The notes beneath the pieces are model-generated. The model did no database searches, was not told the origin of the DNA, and saw only the letters and a list, made by a program, of their open reading frames with translations. The translations under genes were made by a program, and so were the position numbers. Of a DNA stretch of 64,000 nucleotides, positions 17,397 through 61,842 are shown piece by piece. How positions within the stretch are numbered: position 1 is the stretch's first letter; every line of letters begins with the position of its first letter. Source of the DNA: an uncultured Candidatus Saccharibacteria bacterium (GTDB lineage Bacteria; Patescibacteriota; Minisyncoccia; Phycocordibacterales; UBA2100); the NCBI GenBank assembly GCA_964399345.1, contig CAYNQE010000001.1, positions 17,060 through 81,059 on the forward strand, written 5' to 3'.

Positions 17397-17472
17397 TTGG
17401 ACATTATGACATGGACACGGTTATACACGCTAGTAGACCAACTGTATTTATCTATGCTCTATACTGTAGGTA

Positions 17473-18393
17473 ATGCTTCATAGACACGAATACAAAGATT
17501 TAATCTGGATTGATCTGGAGTCCCCCAGTATTATGGACGTTAAGTCTATAGTGGAGGAATTTAAAATAGATCAAATAGTTGCAGACGAGCTTCTCTCGCC
17601 TACTCTAAGGCCTCATACGGATAAGTATGATGGGTTTCTATATTTAGTTTTACATTTTCCGACTCTTAGTCACCCGGAGAACTCACTAGGACACCTTGAA
17701 CATGAAGTTGATTTTATAATCGGAAAGGATTTTATAATAACAACACGCTACCAAGAACTAGAATCGTTTGAAGACTTTAGAAAAGTATTCGAAGTTAACG
17801 CAAGTCTAGATGATGATCATTTAACTGATAACCCCTTTGATATCTTCTTGCTACTCACAAGACGCTTATACAAGACGGTAGAAAATGAAATTAATATTGT
17901 TAGAGAGACTCTTGAACACATTGAAAGTGAGGTCTTCAAGGGGCGAGAGAAAGAAATGGTTGTTTCCCTATCTAAAACAGGACGCGATATTTTAAACTTA
18001 AAACAAGCACTGGACCCACATCAAGAAGTCTTGAGTTCTCTAAGAGAGTTAACTGTAGAGTTTGCCGGAAGCGAATACGCAACCCGAGTGAAAGCAATTG
18101 AGAACATGTACTACCGTTCTCGTAAGCACATAACCAGAATATGGCAGACCTTGACTGAACTTCGCGAAACAAATAACTCATTGCTTTCAACAAAGCAAAA
18201 TGAAGTTATGAAGGTTTTCACCATACTAGCCTTTGTTACCTTCCCATTATCTCTTGTTGCCTCTATATTTGGAATGAACACAGAAAACATTCCTTTTGTT
18301 GGACAAGAACACGATTTTTGGATTGTTATAGGAATGATGCTCTTTGCAACATTCTTTATGTTCCTGTTCTTTAAACGGAAGGGGTGGTTGTAG
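17473..18393 (+). CDS. corA: CorA-family Mg2+/Co2+ transporter
   Basis: Two C-terminal TM helices with FGMNTENIP, a GMN-motif variant. Cytoplasmic alpha/beta N-terminal domain. Confidence 0.8.
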   Translation: MLHRHEYKDLIWIDLESPSIMDVKSIVEEFKIDQIVADELLSPTLRPHTDKYDGFLYLVLHFPTLSHPENSLGHLEHEVDFIIGKDFIITTRYQELESFEDFRKVFEVNASLDDDHLTDNPFDIFLLLTRRLYKTVENEINIVRETLEHIESEVFKGREKEMVVSLSKTGRDILNLKQALDPHQEVLSSLRELTVEFAGSEYATRVKAIENMYYRSRKHITRIWQTLTELRETNNSLLSTKQNEVMKVFTILAFVTFPLSLVASIFGMNTENIPFVGQEHDFWIVIGMMLFATFFMFLFFKRKGWL

Positions 18394-30093: not shown

Positions 30094-30164
30094 TCTTTTA
30101 CTTGTTCTTTGTCGAAGTATTCTCTGCGAAGAAAGCTGCCCGAGCGTGTATAAACTTTTTAACC

Positions 30165-30308
30165 TTAACTTGCTTTCTTATTTAATACAATGTTATTGCA
30201 CCACAGAGAGGCAGTGCCTTTAGAAACGCTCAATAGTTCACTTATCTCCTTTAGAGAATAGCCTTTTCTTCTTAAGATAAGTGCTTGTTGTTTTTCCTTG
30301 AATTTCAT
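30165..30308 (-). pseudogene. Detached 47-aa HTH fragment. It corresponds to the N-terminal HTH of the intact paralog and is separated from the nuclease domain by two stop codons and a frameshift.
   Basis: MKFKEKQQALILRRKGYSLKEISELLSVSKGTASLW parallels LYSKQGYSMQKIATRFAVSIDAV in the 202-aa paralog. TAA and then TAA stops precede the downstream ATG. Confidence 0.4.
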
Positions 30309-30390
30309 ATCGAACCCCTATCTGGAGTTATATTATACCATATTTAGGATATTCCTAGAAAAGAAAAAGAGTCGCTTTTGCGACTCTTTT

Positions 30391-30552
30391 TCTACTTCTT
30401 CACTTCCTTGTGAGTCTTCTGAGCCCGGCACCACTTACAAAACTTCTTTAGCTCAAGTTTGTCGAGGTTTTCTCCTTTTATTCTACGTGTAGTCCAGTAA
30501 TTCGTACGCTTACAATCTGAACACGCTAATTTTTTTAATTTGTCTTGACTCA
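30391..30552 (-). CDS. rpmG: 50S ribosomal protein L33 (53 aa; not in the ORF track)
   Basis: Translation MSQDKLKKLACSDCKRTNYWTTRRIKGENLDKLELKKFCKWCRAQKTHKEVKK has the L33 CxxC...CxxC zinc ribbon and its consensus. Confidence 0.8.
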
Positions 30553-30567
30553 TATGTAGCGCATAGA

Positions 30568-39935: not shown

Positions 39936-40571
39936 ATGGCTAAGGCACACAAGAAGATTAACATGGCCTGGTCTCCAAAATTATCTTACGCAATAGGAAT
40001 AATAGCCTCTGATGGTAATTTGTCCCCTGATAGAAGGCATATAAACATAACATCAAAAGATCTCTCTATTGTTGAAAGTTGTAAAAGCGCACTAGAGATA
40101 GATAACAAAATAGGAAGGAAGAGCCGCGAACGTTCTTCCGAAAAGGAATATTATGTCCTTCAATTTGGAAGTGTATTGTTTTATCAATTCTTGCTTGACC
40201 TGGGACTTCACCCAAACAAATCAAAAACACTGAAAAAAGTAGACGTTCCTAATGAATATTTCTCACATTTTTTACGAGGACTTATGAATGGTGATGGAAC
40301 AATAACATCCTTTAAGCATCCTTATAGCAAACTACTTCAAACAAGAATATCTTTGGCATCTGCAAGTCCGGATTTTCTAATCTGGATACACGGTAAAATA
40401 CGAAAACTTGTAAATATTGAAGGTGGTTGGATATACAATGCAAAAAAGAAAAATATCTCCATGCTTACATTTGGCAAAAGAGACACTATACTAGTCTGCA
40501 AATTTATGTATAATAAATCGGCTACATACAAGCTTATGCGTAAATATGATTGCATAGAAAAGTATCTTTAA
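39936..40571 (+). CDS. Double-motif (monomeric) LAGLIDADG homing endonuclease
   Basis: Two LAGLIDADG helices, YAIGIIASDGNL and HFLRGLMNGDGTI, about 100 aa apart. 211 aa. It fills the tRNA-Lys/tRNA-Leu spacer exactly. Confidence 0.8.
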   Translation: MAKAHKKINMAWSPKLSYAIGIIASDGNLSPDRRHINITSKDLSIVESCKSALEIDNKIGRKSRERSSEKEYYVLQFGSVLFYQFLLDLGLHPNKSKTLKKVDVPNEYFSHFLRGLMNGDGTITSFKHPYSKLLQTRISLASASPDFLIWIHGKIRKLVNIEGGWIYNAKKKNISMLTFGKRDTILVCKFMYNKSATYKLMRKYDCIEKYL

Positions 40572-40574
40572 GTT

Positions 40575-40659
40575 GGGCGAGTGGTGAAATTGGTATACAC
40601 GCGTGGTTTAGGACCACGTTCCGCAAGGAGTGGAGGTTCAAGTCCTCTCTCGCCCACCA
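40575..40659 (+). tRNA. tRNA-Leu (anticodon TAG), CCA encoded
   Basis: Acceptor GGGCGAG/CTCGCCC. Anticodon stem CGTGG/CCACG with loop TTTAGGA. Long variable arm. Ends ACCA. Confidence 0.8.
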
Positions 40660-40667
40660 GAATAGAA

Positions 40668-40812
40668 CTTGTCCGCCTACGCACTGGACGTGTCGCCTCG
40701 TTCCACTCAGCAACCTAAATACAAACTCATTCCCTTTCAACTTTTTACGACTCCCCCAGACCCCCACCGCAGGGAAAAGGAAAGGTGAGGAAATGGTTTG
40801 TTTTTTGGTTTA
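40668..40812 (+). repeat. Repeat A: about 145 bp left-flank copy of an inverted repeat pair bracketing the DGR. Begins 9 nt after tRNA-Leu(UAG).
   Basis: The reverse complement of 43553-43690 aligns base-for-base with this segment at about 80% identity, for example cgcctacgca[c/t]tggac...gttccactc...acccccaccgc[a/g]ggg...ggaaatg. Confidence 0.7.
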
Positions 40813-40827
40813 CTACTACGTAGTTAA

Positions 40828-41826
40828 CTACTTATTTAAATGTGTAGAAAGGGAGCGCGTGTACTCTTTTAACTCATAAGCATCTCCATGTCCGAGTAGT
40901 CCCAAGTATGATTGTAAAGTCCATTGTTTGCCATCAACTTCACTAATTCTCTTTAACATTCTTCGTTTTGTTACACTGCGTAGTACACGGTGAGTCGGAA
41001 AGTGAACCCAACCTAGAAAGTCAACTCCTGAGGAGAATGTTTCAATGGAAGTCTTTCGTTTATGCAATTTAAGTTGTAACTCTTCTTTTAGAAACGCACC
41101 TATGCACCGATGTATTTCCAACAACTCTTGTCTGTCTCGCGAAAGAATCACAAAATCGTCAGCATAACGAATATAATATTTAGCTTTCAGTTTGTGTTTA
41201 ACAAACTTATCAAGCTCATTCATATATACATTAACAAAGAGTTGCGAAGTGAGGTTACCAAGTGGTAATCCTTTTCTTTTCTCACCAGAGCTGAAACTCC
41301 CAACAATCTCTTCTAAAAGCGAAATTATATCTTTGTCAGAAATGTGTTTCTTCAAAATATTCATTAAGATAGAGTGGCCAATGGAGGCAAAGAATTTTCG
41401 TATATCGCTTTTAAATACCCAAACTGTTTTCGTGTTGTTCTTTGAAACTTTGTTTACAAAACTGCGAAGCCGATCAATTGCTCTGTGTGTCCCTTTGTTG
41501 TTTCTGCAAGAATATGAGTCAGCGATGAACGTATTGTCAAAATATGGATAGAGTTGTCTATATATTGCATGGTGAAATAGTCTGTCTCGCACGCTTGCCT
41601 TATGAATATTTCTTGGTTTGGGATCGGAAATGTTAAAAGCTTCGTATCTACCGTGCTTGTATGTTTTGTTTTTTAAATCTTGGTGTAATGAAAGTATGTT
41701 ATCCATTAGATGTAATTGGAACTCCTGCACGTCCTTACGTTTTCGTTTACCGTTTAAGAATTCCTTCCACGCACCGAGGAGATTTTCTACACAGATGATA
41801 TCATTGTAGGTATGAACAAATTTCAT
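40828..41826 (-). CDS. DGR-type reverse transcriptase
   Basis: RT motifs KHGRYEAFNISDPKPRNIHKASVRDRLFHHAI (domains 1-2) and YIRYADDFVIL (YADD catalytic box). 332 aa with no maturase or endonuclease domain. A TR/VR pair lies adjacent. Confidence 0.85.
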   Translation of the reverse strand: MKFVHTYNDIICVENLLGAWKEFLNGKRKRKDVQEFQLHLMDNILSLHQDLKNKTYKHGRYEAFNISDPKPRNIHKASVRDRLFHHAIYRQLYPYFDNTFIADSYSCRNNKGTHRAIDRLRSFVNKVSKNNTKTVWVFKSDIRKFFASIGHSILMNILKKHISDKDIISLLEEIVGSFSSGEKRKGLPLGNLTSQLFVNVYMNELDKFVKHKLKAKYYIRYADDFVILSRDRQELLEIHRCIGAFLKEELQLKLHKRKTSIETFSSGVDFLGWVHFPTHRVLRSVTKRRMLKRISEVDGKQWTLQSYLGLLGHGDAYELKEYTRSLSTHLNK

Positions 41827-52952: not shown

Positions 52953-53594
52953 TTGATGTTTCGAGAACAGACTTATCTTTGCGTCAATACAAACGAGTGT
53001 AGTACAATGCTTTCCATGCCAGCTGATTCACATCAAGAACCTCACCCTCTAGATGGTAATCACCCTACTTCTCTTAAAAGTCTAATTCTCTTTGCGGTTA
53101 TCGTTATGGTTATAGTACTTCCTATACGATTGTTTATCGCAAAGCCTTTTATCGTTTCAGGAACTTCTATGTTCCCTACCTTTGATACTTGGCACTACCT
53201 TATCATCGATCAGATTAGTTACAGGTTTAACGAGCCTGAACGTGGTGATGTTATTGTCTTTCGTTTTCCTCAAGATCCATCACGCTTTTTTATTAAAAGA
53301 ATTATAGGCCTTCCAGGAGAGAGGGTTGTTCTCTCAGGAAACACTGTAACTATCTTTAATGACGAATCACCGGAAGGATTCGTTTTAGATGAACCATATG
53401 TTGATGACGAGCACCAAAAACCTTCGAATTCAGTTTCTAACCTAGGAGATAACGAATATTTTGTTCTGGGAGATAATCGCGCGGCATCTTCCGATTCAAG
53501 GTACTGGGGACCGTTGGAAGATAATAAGATAACCGGAAGAGCATACGTTCGACTCTTTCCTTTTAATAGTATAGGTACCTATCCAGGAAAATAA
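52953..53594 (+). CDS. lepB: Signal peptidase I
   Basis: Catalytic Ser box VSGTSMFPTF, Lys box, and GDNRAASSDSRYWGP box E. Confidence 0.85.
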   Translation: MMFREQTYLCVNTNECSTMLSMPADSHQEPHPLDGNHPTSLKSLILFAVIVMVIVLPIRLFIAKPFIVSGTSMFPTFDTWHYLIIDQISYRFNEPERGDVIVFRFPQDPSRFFIKRIIGLPGERVVLSGNTVTIFNDESPEGFVLDEPYVDDEHQKPSNSVSNLGDNEYFVLGDNRAASSDSRYWGPLEDNKITGRAYVRLFPFNSIGTYPGK

Positions 53595-53595
53595 T

Positions 53596-54741
53596 ATGTT
53601 AACAATTCAACAAACAAACTGTGCAAGCACAGGAGAACTTCTTGACCGAGCACTGGACACGATAGAATTCTATGGATTCAATCCCTTGGATAAGACCCTT
53701 AAAGACAAGAAGCCTGCAAAGGTGTTAAAGGTTCGCGCAAATGCCAACTTGGCGCTCCCTATTGAAAAAAAGTTATCCTCCCTAACTAAATCTTTCGTTT
53801 CTCACGGTTTTCATAGAGAGGATTTTCCTCATTTTGAATATCAGGTGGAAAGCGGGGCAAAAGTATCTTCGCTTTCATTACATGCAGTAGGAAGTAAGTC
53901 TTCTATTGCAGAGGCTATGCTTATCTCCACCCTAGAAAATATAGCTAGAGAAAGTGGCCTGCAAGGCTATGTTTTACATATCAATAGCATTGGTGACAAA
54001 GACTCTTCTGCTCGATATATTCGTGATTTAACTGCCTATCTACGAAATAATTTAAATGAGATGCCAGGCTATGCACGAGAGGATATGCAGGCAGGCAACC
54101 CCGTTAGAGCATTTTCAAAACTTTCTGAAAAACAAAATGAAATTGCAGGAGGTGCGCCTAATCCTATGGAGTATCTAAACGATGAAAGCAGGGCGCATCT
54201 GCGAACTGTTCTTGAATATGTTGAAAACATTGGAATTCCTTATGAATTAGACACATCAGTTCTAGGAAGTAATGATTGCTGGCAACACACAATATTTGAA
54301 TTAAGAATTCCTAACGAAAGTGGTGGAACAATAACAGTAGCCCGCGGTGGACGGCACGATTCTCTTGCATACAAGAGCTATCGAGTTGAAATGCCGGTTG
54401 TTAGTGTAATTATCGAACACGAAATACGAGGAAGGATTAAACCTAAAAGACGAGCAACTACAGATCCAAAATTCTTTTTTGCACAACTTGGCCCACAAGC
54501 TAAAATGAAAAGTTTTTCTGTTTTAGAATTACTTCGTAAGTCAGGAGTTCCTATTTCACAACAACTAGCGCTTGAAAGTATTGGTGCTCAACTTGAAAAA
54601 GTTACCACTCCGTATACCGTTATCATCGGCCACAAAGAAGCATTGGAGGAAACTGCAATTGTTCGTAATATGAATACCATGTCACAGGTAGTTGTTCCAC
54701 TATCAAACCTTTCTAGCTATTTGAAGAGATTGAAGGCTTAG
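53596..54741 (+). CDS. hisS: Histidine--tRNA ligase, divergent short form
   Basis: Class II motif 3 GGRHDSL (compare GGRYD.L). C-terminal anticodon-binding alpha/beta domain. N-terminal motif-1-like FYGFNPL. Confidence 0.55.
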   Translation: MLTIQQTNCASTGELLDRALDTIEFYGFNPLDKTLKDKKPAKVLKVRANANLALPIEKKLSSLTKSFVSHGFHREDFPHFEYQVESGAKVSSLSLHAVGSKSSIAEAMLISTLENIARESGLQGYVLHINSIGDKDSSARYIRDLTAYLRNNLNEMPGYAREDMQAGNPVRAFSKLSEKQNEIAGGAPNPMEYLNDESRAHLRTVLEYVENIGIPYELDTSVLGSNDCWQHTIFELRIPNESGGTITVARGGRHDSLAYKSYRVEMPVVSVIIEHEIRGRIKPKRRATTDPKFFFAQLGPQAKMKSFSVLELLRKSGVPISQQLALESIGAQLEKVTTPYTVIIGHKEALEETAIVRNMNTMSQVVVPLSNLSSYLKRLKA

Positions 54742-54807
54742 TTGACAAACCGCTAGTCTCATAGTACTATATATTTACAGTACATTTATATAACGGAGGT
54801 ACAAATC

Positions 54808-55236
54808 ATGATTTTTTCGCTGAAGACTACCCATGGAGTTTTGCGATTTTTCAATAATCGGAAAAACTTTGGTATTATCGATTCATCAATCGGTCCAATC
54901 TACCTACCAGGCAAAGTTCTGGACGGATCAAAGTTTTCATCCGTAGACACAGGTGATTCGATCACCGTTGGCTATGGGACAAGAGAAGATGGGAGCTTCT
55001 TCGTCACAGGAATAGACGCCATCACACAACCTCCCCGGATTCTCGGAACTATCAAATGGTTCAACTGGACTAAGGGCTATGGTTTTGTCGAAGTTGAGGG
55101 AGAAAAGGATGTGTTCCTTCCCAAAAGCATCCTGAAAAAATGTGGGCTTCAAGAAATTTATGACGGTGTCCCGGTTACATTGACTCACCGACCCTCGGAA
55201 CGTAACCCCATCTGCACAAGTATCGCAATGGTATGA
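54808..55236 (+). CDS. Protein with two cold-shock (CSD) domains
   Basis: GVLRFFNNRKNFGII and GTIKWFNWTKGYGFVEV are RNP1-like CSD motifs. Confidence 0.7.
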   Translation: MIFSLKTTHGVLRFFNNRKNFGIIDSSIGPIYLPGKVLDGSKFSSVDTGDSITVGYGTREDGSFFVTGIDAITQPPRILGTIKWFNWTKGYGFVEVEGEKDVFLPKSILKKCGLQEIYDGVPVTLTHRPSERNPICTSIAMV

Positions 55237-55281
55237 TCTTCCAAGCGCACACCTCTCGGGGTGTGCGCTTTGATTTTAAGG

Positions 55282-55680
55282 GGTTGACAGGTCTCTAACA
55301 CAATGATGTCTTACTTGAGTCTAATGCGATTCGCGCATTAGACTTTGAAACGACAACGGAGGAATCCATGTCAAAATTGTTCCCGGCCCCACGTGGGGCA
55401 CCCGTAAAAAGTTATGTTTAGTGCATCTCTTTTTTTCCACTTCTGCCGGACGGCCGCCGGTGCGATTCAACAGAATCGCGGCGCCTGCCCTGAGGATGGC
55501 AATGGGTTTTAATCGAAAGATATAAACCCAAGCCGTTTTAACGGATTTGCACAAGCAGTCCGTTACGACCTAAAACCATAAGGAGGACTGACCCCATGAG
55601 GAGAATAAACTCATCTTGGCGGCCATCAGCCGCCGGTGACAATTTCGCCCCGCATTCGTGCGGGGCGCTCTTTTTTATAT
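55282..55680 (+). ncRNA. Candidate structured noncoding RNA of unassigned family. GC-rich, ends in an intrinsic terminator (55645-55676).
   Basis: About 400 nt with no plausible ORF and multiple GC-rich hairpins (aatgcgattcgcgcatt, ggccccacgtggggc, gcgattcaacagaatcgc). Terminator cgccccgca-ttcg-tgcggggcg followed by TCTTTTTT. Confidence 0.3.
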
Positions 55681-55726
55681 ACACCCCTAGCACTCTAAGC
55701 CTACTTATGGTAAAGTTTCGCCACAT

Positions 55727-55987
55727 ATGGCAACAAATATAGAAATTGAAAAGACTGGAAACGAAAACACGGGCGCTGTTTTGCGTAAGTTTACGCAACG
55801 TATGCGAAGTGCTGGTATCGTTCAAAAAATGCGAAAGATTCGCTACACTGCGCGCCCTCTTTCAGACTCCACTCGACGAGGTAAAGCTCTACGAAAGATC
55901 CGAAGAAAGAGCGAATTTGAGCAACTAATTAAAGACGGAAAACTATCCGACTCTGTACGCGGAAAGCGCGTTAAATGGGGAAAGTAG
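55727..55987 (+). CDS. rpsU: 30S ribosomal protein S21
   Basis: LRKFTQRMRSAGIVQKMRKIRYTARPLSDSTRRGKALRKIRRK matches the S21 consensus (LRRFKR...G...E.RRR..Y.KP...R). Confidence 0.8.
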   Translation: MATNIEIEKTGNENTGAVLRKFTQRMRSAGIVQKMRKIRYTARPLSDSTRRGKALRKIRRKSEFEQLIKDGKLSDSVRGKRVKWGK

Positions 55988-61079: not shown

Positions 61080-61211
61080 GCGTTTATTTTTTAAATTAAT
61101 AAACTCCTTTCGGTTACGAAAAGAGCGTTCTTATACACGGGACAATACCACAGTAATGAGGTGTTTGTCAAGAGTAAAAAGAATCGTCGATACCCACCAC
61201 AGGTATCGACG

Positions 61212-61412
61212 TTATTCAGTATATCCCCTAAGATAGTCCCTTTTGGCTAAATAACCGAGTTCCTCGTAGCTCATTTCGAGCTCTTCCTCGATTTCATCCA
61301 TCTTAAGACGCGCACTCTTGTCACCTTGGGCCAATTTAATCATCAGCCTTCTGTGTTCAAGTATCAATTCGCGCTTATTTTTAACGGGATTTCCCATACT
61401 ATTTCCCTTCAT
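61212..61412 (-). CDS. Hypothetical small protein (66 aa)
   Basis: ORF with a downstream hairpin plus T-run terminator. Overlaps the upstream gene by 14 nt. Confidence 0.3.
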   Translation of the reverse strand: MKGNSMGNPVKNKRELILEHRRLMIKLAQGDKSARLKMDEIEEELEMSYEELGYLAKRDYLRGYTE

Positions 61413-61842
61413 GAGCAGATTCTAACAACTCAAATAATACCACGAAAGCGTAGGCTCCGCAAGAGGTGCGTGCAAGCTTCCCGTCAGACCCCAGAAAATC
61501 TTTTACCCAAGAATTGTCGATGTCTCTTTTACCCATATTTCTAGACAATATACCTATGCTGTCTATTAAGGCATTATGTAATTGTGTTCTAGCTAAATCT
61601 TCCTTATCCATCTCTTCCTTCCATACTTCTCTGCTAATCTCACCTGTCTTAAGCCTTGCGTTTAGAGCGTCCATTTCCCATACGTCTTGTACATATCTTT
61701 GGGAATATGAAAACACATCCTCTAAAAGAGATTCTAATACTTCGTCTCCTGAACACAGCTCTCTAAGATTCTCCGGGGAAATAAATTTTGATTTAATGCT
61801 GTCTGTTCTTTCTTGCTGTTTATGTAAAAACCCTTCATTCAT
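61399..61842 (-). CDS. Hypothetical protein (147 aa)
   Basis: ORF only. No motif recognised. Confidence 0.35.
   Translation of the reverse strand: MNEGFLHKQQERTDSIKSKFISPENLRELCSGDEVLESLLEDVFSYSQRYVQDVWEMDALNARLKTGEISREVWKEEMDKEDLARTQLHNALIDSIGILSRNMGKRDIDNSWVKDFLGSDGKLARTSCGAYAFVVLFELLESAHEGK

Follow-up and report, generated by a model that had tools for sequence, protein, structure and literature searches.

A species-specific, hairpin-rich insert in the hypervariable slot between a hisS-like gene and rpsU of Kaiserbacteria

The window (the whole 64-kb stretch of DNA that was analysed) carries a run of genes in the order S1, pth, signal peptidase, hisS-like gene, cold-shock-domain (CSD) gene, rpsU, ybeY, ftsA and ftsZ, with a hairpin-rich region between the CSD gene and rpsU. 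The ribosomal protein S21 encoded by rpsU is identical to NCBI COB52_01085, from a Candidatus Kaiserbacteria MAG. The element under study here is the part of the hairpin region that spans positions 55271 to 55680 of the window. The sequence of the hairpin region is identical in the other assemblies of the population, four assemblies in all; SNPs among the assemblies are confined to a cluster at 53267-53390, and this identity is therefore uninformative beyond indicating fixation in the population. The features of the locus are collected in Table 1.

Table 1. Features of the insert and its borders (positions are those of the window)
Feature	Position	Strand	Details
hisS-like gene	53596-54741		
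CSD-gene promoter	54742-54770	+	TTGACA-17-TACTAT; TTGACA directly after the hisS-like stop codon
CSD gene	54808-55236	+	orphan 142-aa protein, C-terminal cold-shock domain at residues 80-126; first unit of the insert
T1, terminator of the CSD gene	55243-55278	+	12-bp stem 55243-55270, interrupted U tract TGATTTTA
TTGACA hexamer	55284-55289	+	16-18 nt downstream: TGTCTT, no acceptable -10
H1 hairpin	55317-55345	+	11-12 bp perfect, loop ATTCG, no U tract; contains aatgcgattcgcgcatt
Strong SD	55358-55363	+	GGAGGA, 5-nt spacer
17-codon ORF	ATG 55368; TAG 55419-55421	+	MSKLFPAPRGAPVKSYV
Short GC hairpin	55386-55399	+	GCCCC-ACGU-GGGGC; within the 17-codon ORF; ggccccacgtggggc at 55386-55400
U-rich stretch			between the 17-codon ORF and the composite hairpin
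Composite GC-rich hairpin	55448-55489	+	inner stem GCGATTC-AACA-GAATCGC 55462-55479
13-bp hairpin	55498-55534	+	GAAA tetraloop
14-bp hairpin	55535-55569	+	core AACGGA...TCCGTT
Second strong SD-like site	55580-55587	+	AAGGAGGA; 9-nt spacer after GGAGG, ATG 55596
Hairpin	55611-55639	+	core GGCGGC-CATCA-GCCGCC
T2, intrinsic terminator	55646-55676	+ only	9-bp stem 55646-55667, 8 G-C, loop TTCG, tail CTCTTTTTT
Conserved rpsU promoter block	55683-55726	+	ACACCCCTAGCACTCT...TATGGTAAAGT; outside the element
rpsU extended -10	55708-55716	+	TGGTAAAGT
rpsU	55727-55987	+	ATG at 55727

The hairpin region is bracketed by two terminators, T1 and T2, both in plus orientation. T2 has the GC-rich stem-loop, directly followed by a U tract, that defines an intrinsic (rho-independent) terminator. 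The first-pass annotation had described several strong hairpins, an intrinsic terminator belonging to the region itself and a separate promoter for rpsU. All of these are present, the hairpins within 2 nt of where they had been placed, and the extended -10 of rpsU is conserved in relatives. This -10 lies about 10 nt before the rpsU ATG, which implies a very short leader, and the promoter is kept in relatives both with and without an insert. Against distant relatives, the start of the conserved promoter block falls at about 55683. Because the rpsU promoter lies downstream of T2, the region is not the 5′ UTR of rpsU. The suggestion that a TTGACA at 55282 might serve as a -35 is unsupported, as the hexamer starts at 55284 and is followed by no usable -10 at a distance of 16-18 nt; a promoter scan returned none in the hairpin region, which leaves room for non-consensus promoters. 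H1, which is devoid of a U tract, may be a 5′-terminal stabilising stem-loop. The motif GCCGCCGGTG is present twice, at 55453-55462 and at 55629, and a long-range helix could form between 55374-55387 and 55632-45, so that alternative folds of this single sequence are possible.

The GC content of the hairpin region is 0.49-0.51 vs 0.40 for the 64-kb window, an elevation that is real, although the word "striking" with which it was first described is too strong. Fold z-scores were calculated against dinucleotide shuffles and reach -6.36 on the plus strand and -5.93 on the minus strand for 55275-55680, -5.07 for 55312-55640 with the terminator left out, and -4.70 for the 3′ half of the hairpin region, compared with +0.42 for the neighbouring CSD coding sequence. 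In a regression of MFE on GC across 318 400-nt windows, the hairpin region is the most extreme (-3.1 SD; the next two are at -2.9). Perfect hairpins of at least 9 bp are likewise concentrated here, three of the 13 distinct ones in 64 kb falling within 430 nt. Folding is equally strong on the two strands, whose G-U counts are the same, and in view of this symmetry it is only the U tracts of T1 and T2 that assign the region to the plus strand.

Coding capacity is very limited. No ORF on the plus strand is longer than 48 aa, and the longest on the minus strand has 77 aa, with a TTG start and lacking an SD. Gene callers, run on three independent assemblies, place no gene between the CSD gene and rpsU. 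A phmmer search of the 77-aa ORF against 1.84 billion representatives returned two matches and no genuine homologue, both matches being artefacts in which a weak 12/23 match is multiplied over tandem repeats in giant proteins. Searches of the 48-aa and 77-aa ORFs against Pfam and PHROGs gave no match. The region had been called noncoding, with the reservation that a different genetic code might disclose a gene, and this call stands: no frame holds a credible ORF, and code 25 opens no frame in 55271-55680 and yields no gene.

Two sites within the element nevertheless resemble translation starts. The pattern GGAGG-N3-10-ATG occurs at 11 sites on both strands of the 64-kb window, only three of which begin long ORFs, and three of the 11 lie on the plus strand of the insert, at the CSD start, at 55368 and at 55596. 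The ORF that starts at ATG 55368 has the SD and start at proper spacing expected of a small-protein gene, whereas the other mark of such a gene, protein conservation or a gene call, was not found (three assemblies; Pfam and PHROGs for the 48-aa and 77-aa ORFs). Its 17-codon frame would reach 41 codons were TAG 55419 read as sense, and a +1 shift after ATG 55368 opens about 51 codons, to 55525; the restored ORFs, of 41 or about 51 codons, have no homologue and no recognisable domain. The 48-codon ORF that starts at ATG 55596 is unlikely to be a gene because it crosses T2 as well as the rpsU promoter and reaches into rpsU.

The first-pass annotation had proposed that the size of the region would fit RNase P RNA and had listed tmRNA, SRP RNA and 6S RNA as further candidates. 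None of these is borne out. Rfam searches of the whole window, at gathering thresholds and at E<=0.5, return only tRNAs and no match in the hairpin region. At E<=10 on 55150-55800 (651 nt), they return only terminator look-alikes (Atu_C9, istR, anti-hemB) and noise, and ARAGORN detects no tmRNA or tRNA in 55200-55700. RNase P RNA (RNaseP_bact_a/b) has no covariance-model match at the three Rfam sensitivities, and the element is missing from the corresponding site of the sister species and other lineages and from the fetched loci (~175 kb searched). A tmRNA is matched by neither ARAGORN nor Rfam, SRP RNA and 6S RNA have no covariance-model match, and riboswitches, T-boxes and ribozymes are unsupported by the Rfam searches. 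An rpsU leader, be it a riboswitch, a T-box, an r-protein leader or an attenuator, is rejected on the position of the rpsU -10, which lies downstream of T2 and is common to relatives that lack the element. A retron of type V or Se72-like kind was also considered and rejected, since neither the insert nor its surroundings encode a reverse transcriptase; the neighbours are the hisS-like gene and rpsU. The annotation had named the lack of a covariance-model match and of conservation in relatives as the findings that would speak against a structured RNA, and both are what the Rfam scan and the comparison with relatives returned. Structured-RNA status is supported on thermodynamic grounds only, and the data searched contain no homologue for covariation.

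The comparison with relatives was anchored on S21, which is divergent and lineage-specific (49 homologues, 61-100% identity). Loci fetched through S21 from genome, metagenome and assembly collections amount to 40 related loci and about 175 kb. In 16 other lineages, the hisS-like gene, rpsU and ybeY are likewise neighbours, and this order is kept down to 35% hisS identity. The gap between the hisS-like gene and rpsU is short, 26-141 nt, in about 8 lineages (L004/L020, L008, L009, L010/L017, L013/L014, L037 and L011), and ranges from 243 to 1146 nt in 8 lineages, the window included: 985 nt in the window, 429 in L024-26, 508 in L028/29/30/36, 342 in L032, 437 in L033/34, 450 in L035, 1146 in L005 and 243 in L007/16. 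This slot is thus hypervariable in Kaiserbacteria.

The closest comparison is provided by a sister species, represented by L024 (ENA TULL18-1 scaffold_380), L025 (GCA_002401495.1) and L026, in which the S21 protein is identical and the flanking DNA is 84-92% identical. Homology to the sister species stops at 54747, the TTGACA after the hisS-like stop codon being the last common stretch, and restarts at 55706, at the rpsU -10. Between these breakpoints, the window has 958 nt and the sister species a cassette of 402 nt that is unrelated to them; the Smith-Waterman score of the two is 21, and shuffles give 20.4 +/- 2.5. The element is absent from the 16 other lineages, sister species included, and blastn and nhmmer searches of the 40 related loci (175 kb) recover only identical self copies from other assemblies. 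Phages show no match to the insert, plasmids match only the generic CSD core, and a search of viral contigs with two exact/degenerate hairpin patterns gave one chance match with no flanking similarity. Replacement at a slot between close relatives with conserved flanks, and a composition atypical for the host genome, are marks of a moron-like cassette, and both were found here.

The long occupants of the slot are mostly unrelated to one another, and all lie on the plus strand, in the same orientation as the flanking genes. Most of them consist of an SD, a small ORF and an intrinsic terminator, and the ones that were folded are hairpin-rich. The L024 cassette comprises a promoter, a 5′ UTR of about 110 nt, an SD, a 37-aa ORF, a tail of about 130 nt and a terminator. 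L028 (L028/29/30/36) carries a 72-aa ORF, L005 a 73-aa ORF plus two more SD-ORF-terminator units, L033 a 49-aa ORF, L035 a 50-aa ORF and L032 an ORF of about 32 aa, read by eye; L007 has a promoter, a perfect 14-bp palindrome and a terminator. Occupant GC is elevated over the genome in L024 (0.50 vs 0.41), L033 (0.55 vs 0.47) and L035 (0.56 vs 0.50), with no elevation in L032 and L007. The ORF shared by L005 and L028 is identical at 40 of 72 residues, 22 of which show synonymous codon differences, and contains one whole-codon indel; because it is conserved as a protein, at least some slot occupants are real small-protein genes. For L024 and L007, too, the predicted fold of the cassette is far more stable than that of shuffles (z -5.0 and z -8.1, respectively). 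As the unrelated, peptide-encoding L024 cassette is nearly as structured as the hairpin region, high foldability does not discriminate between an RNA gene and a small-peptide mRNA in this slot.

The insert as a whole extends over about 940-960 nt, from 54748 to ~55682-55705, and is compositionally foreign and species-specific. Its GC is 0.46-0.51 vs 0.40, the trinucleotide distance of the 940-nt insert segment ranks 2 of 136 windows, and the GC3 of the CSD gene is 0.458 vs 0.316 +/- 0.046 over 56 genes (+3.1 SD). A search of 5.8 billion clustered proteins recovered only the CSD protein itself, and viral contigs yielded no relative. By eye, its N-terminal half also looks CSD-like, and the protein is referred to below as "tandem-CSD". 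Its best NCBIfam matches are 'transcription antiterminator/RNA stability regulator CspE' and 'RNA chaperone/antiterminator CspA', all far below cut-offs; weaker, generic CSD matches are PADLOC CSD_V (E 4.6e-7) and NCBIfam retron_eff_Se72 (28.6 bits vs a cut-off of 82). Because several relatives have 48-52% GC, it is plausible that the insert came from a Kaiserbacterium of higher GC, through recombination in the conserved flanks. No meaningful direct repeats flank the insert as mobile signatures, and neither further copies of the hairpin unit nor extended complementarity to it occur elsewhere in the 64 kb. A literature search on a link between CSD genes and rpsU yielded nothing usable.

Altogether, these findings lead to a reading, to which we give about an even chance, in which 55271-55680 is a strain-specific accessory mini transcription unit in a hypervariable slot, with little or no coding capacity, transcribed on the plus strand via T1 read-through or a weak promoter and ending at T2. 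The unit is neither a housekeeping RNA nor an rpsU leader, and it is most likely a tiny-peptide mRNA or an effectively noncoding RNA. It would form the second, distal part of the insert that lies between the hisS-like gene and the rpsU promoter, and would resemble in its general nature the other slot occupants in relatives, as a small accessory plus-strand transcription unit. From 5′ to 3′, its layout would comprise a stem-loop, a strong SD, the 17-codon ORF, a long tail rich in hairpins, which take up about 225 nt, and, at the end, a strong intrinsic terminator. Transcription from the strong CSD promoter could pass the imperfect T1 and continue into the unit; alternatively, a weak promoter close to the TTGACA hexamer could drive it. 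The RNA could owe its stability to H1 and the array of hairpins, ribosomes could be recruited to the 17-codon ORF by the SD, and T2 would halt transcription ahead of the conserved rpsU promoter, thereby insulating rpsU.

This accessory-unit reading has its own difficulties: no convincing promoter was found in the hairpin region, the 17-codon ORF is perhaps a chance product, the second SD and ATG open an ORF that crosses the terminator and fits no simple gene model, and both strands fold equally, so that the strand is given by the terminator U tracts only. The same structural features can be read as a functional, lineage-specific structured ncRNA of about 360-400 nt, acting in trans as an sRNA or as the RNA partner of the tandem-CSD protein, with the short ORFs being incidental. 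Such an RNA would account for the z-scores of -5 to -6.4 and the most extreme 400-nt window after GC correction, for the share of perfect hairpins (three of 13), for the GAAA and UUCG loops and the clean terminator at the end, and for the neighbouring gene, which encodes an RNA-binding CSD protein; searches for RNAs of this kind have, moreover, classically turned to long intergenic regions rich in GC (PMC6429828). It is nonetheless unlikely, if the strongest of the alternatives, given that no homologue was found in the collections searched, hence no covariation evidence, and that the element is absent from the sister species. No promoter was found for it, folding shows no strand asymmetry, the slot of the sister species houses a peptide-encoding cassette with almost as much structure, and no extended complementarity occurs elsewhere in the 64 kb. 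Somewhat less probable again is a decayed small-protein cassette, whose original ORF of about 40-55 codons, comparable to those in the slot of relatives, would have been interrupted by TAG 55419 or by a frameshift directly behind the ATG, leaving a functionless remnant on its way to deletion, or palindromes relevant only as DNA. The strong SD and ATG are still there, reading through TAG 55419 or shifting the frame by +1 opens 41 or about 51 codons, the unit length of about 400 nt resembles that of the L024, L033 and L035 cassettes, and the insert looks recent and foreign. However, the restored ORFs lack a homologue or recognisable domain, and the strong excess structure is unexpected in a remnant, the intact CSD coding sequence having a z of +0.4. 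Small CPR genomes, in addition, tend to lose junk DNA, and the sequence is identical in four assemblies, i.e., fixed in the population, although this is uninformative.

Other explanations turn on the neighbouring genes and carry much less weight. In a read-through or antitermination module, the CSD protein would melt T1, the hairpins and T2, and let transcription from the CSD promoter proceed into rpsU-ybeY-ftsA-ftsZ, for instance in the cold. The CSD promoter, CSD gene, T1, hairpins, T2 and rpsU are all co-oriented, the best NCBIfam family names, though far below cut-offs, are those of the CspE and CspA antiterminators, and E. coli CspA, CspC and CspE reportedly act as antiterminators at intrinsic terminators. 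Yet rpsU keeps its own conserved promoter, relatives do without any such module, the need for 400 nt of hairpins is left unexplained and the idea is drawn purely from the arrangement, which makes it improbable. We regard as equally improbable a broader proposal in which the hairpin array is the RNA partner or target of a co-acquired tandem-CSD protein and the slot is a capture site for mini-cassettes. In one possible variant, the array would work as a CSD-sensitive module for antitermination or thermo-sensing, through which the acquired gene is coupled to rpsU-ybeY-ftsAZ transcription. More generally, the hisS-like/rpsU slot may be a dedicated capture site, served by a mechanism that time and again inserts unrelated mini-cassettes rich in GC and in hairpins. 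A divergent member of a known RNA family (RNase P, tmRNA, SRP, 6S, riboswitch/T-box or rpsU leader), which only size and GC content would favour, is effectively refuted by the lack of any Rfam match even at E<=10 and of anything from ARAGORN, by the absence of the element from relatives that need the same housekeeping RNA and, for a leader, by the rpsU promoter lying downstream of the terminator.

The main value of the analysis is negative: what looked like a textbook structured-RNA candidate is a young, species-specific accessory insert without relatives, which is a reason not to annotate it as RNase P or another RNA family. The more notable by-product is the hypervariable slot, which points to quick turnover beside rpsU in streamlined genomes, even between species with identical S21. 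Should the cassettes have a function, whether through tiny peptides or sRNAs, they would contribute to variation between strains of CPR bacteria.

Several known systems provide points of comparison. Morons are promoter-gene-terminator units lying between conserved genes, first described in lambdoid phages. Like moron-like cassettes and strain-specific intergenic islands, the insert is a self-contained unit bounded by intrinsic terminators and has a composition unlike that of the host; it also lies between two conserved, co-oriented genes and shows presence/absence and replacement polymorphism in close relatives. Unlike them, it is chromosomal in a CPR bacterium rather than part of a prophage, searches showed no sign of a phage, plasmid or integrase, its second unit is essentially devoid of an ORF, and its insertion would have occurred by homologous recombination in the flanking genes. 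The GC-IGR/DIMPL approach looks for structured ncRNA candidates in long GC-rich intergenic regions (PMC6429828, PMC8723152). The element shares with such candidates a long intergenic region, a GC content well above that of the genome, a strong predicted structure and a terminator at the end. These candidates are, however, accepted only with covarying homologues, and the element has no homologue in the collections searched and no Rfam match. The position of the CSD gene, immediately upstream of terminators and stable hairpins, recalls the antitermination and RNA chaperoning of the CspA family; the protein here differs in being a 142-aa orphan with an extra N-terminal half, far below every family cut-off, and a functional link to the hairpins would be hypothetical. 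Retrons of type V / Se72, which combine an ncRNA, a reverse transcriptase and a CSD effector, resemble the locus in having a structured ncRNA candidate beside a CSD protein, with weak CSD_V and Se72 matches; they differ in that no reverse transcriptase is nearby here and that the CSD matches are generic and weaker than those to CspE/CspA. The other Kaiserbacteria slot units (L024, L028/L005, L033, L035) have no sequence similarity to the element, whose ORF is only 17 codons long and whose slot also carries the CSD gene. They are nevertheless alike in position, strand and size (~340-510 nt), in being GC-rich and in having a strong SD and a terminal intrinsic terminator, and the folded ones (L024, L007) are, like the element, strongly structured.

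In Kaiserbacteria, the hisS-like gene and rpsU, the S21 gene, are separated by a hypervariable slot. Some lineages have a spacer of 26-141 nt here, and others have one of 243-1146 nt. The long spacers (that in the window and those at the relatives' loci L005, L007, L024, L028, L032, L033 and L035) hold mutually unrelated cassettes on the + strand, mostly GC-elevated, in which a small ORF is paired with a terminator. The content of the slot varies even where species share an identical S21, and the arrangement in which the hisS-like gene adjoins rpsU is conserved across the lineage.

The gap between ftsA and ftsZ is a second variable slot. There, the sister species (locus L024) carries an additional segment that is missing from the window, in which gene callers place a 110-aa ORF on the - strand in one assembly (L025, GCA_002401495.1). 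Over 4.3-6.4 kb of L001 and L002, two assemblies of the same population, that were compared with the window, all 13 differences are clustered in one short segment of the signal peptidase gene; this segment looks like either the trace of a recombination event or a region that varies between strains.

Three other long stretches of the window lack any ORF of 70 aa or more (see table), one of them containing a palindrome that resembles a bidirectional terminator. ARAGORN also called a permuted tmRNA that overlaps a tRNA-Leu. Because Rfam gave no tmRNA match at any threshold used, this call is probably a false positive.

Positions of the features discussed (window coordinates unless a locus is named)
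Feature	Position	Length	Rfam
Stretch without long ORF	17397-17971	575 nt	no match
Stretch without long ORF	30094-30567	474 nt	no match
14-bp palindrome (inside 30094-30567)	30362-30393		
Stretch without long ORF	61080-61465	386 nt	no match
Permuted tmRNA call	40567-41163		
tRNA-Leu	40575-40659		
Signal peptidase gene, clustered differences	53267-53390	124 nt	
hisS-like gene	53596-54741		
Variable part of the hisS-like-to-rpsU spacer	54742-55705		
CSD protein gene	54808-55236		
Conserved upstream block, extended -10 and start of rpsU	55683-55729		
ftsA/ftsZ gap	57595-57600		
Extra ftsA/ftsZ segment, L024	4370-4869	500 nt	

A conserved extended -10 element (TGGTAAAGT) lies about 10 nt upstream of the rpsU ATG, and the block ACNC(CC)CTAGCNCTCT upstream of it is likewise kept in relatives. 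Given this spacing and a start that has no Shine-Dalgarno (SD) sequence, the rpsU mRNA is probably leaderless or nearly so. Strong SD motifs are scarce in the window: counting both of its strands, GGAGG is followed by ATG at 3-10 nt at 11 sites, only three of which begin long ORFs; canonical strong SD sequences seem to be unused by most genes of this organism.

The cold-shock-domain (CSD) protein encoded within the slot is an orphan that matched only itself in a word-indexed search of 5.8 billion proteins. The N-terminal half of the protein resembles a cold-shock domain too, in degenerate form, which would be its second. The hisS-like product (381 aa) has a Pfam match confined to the anticodon-binding domain and scores 110 bits against TIGR00442, below the cut-off of 287; a divergent HisRS and a HisZ-like paralogue are both possible identities for it.
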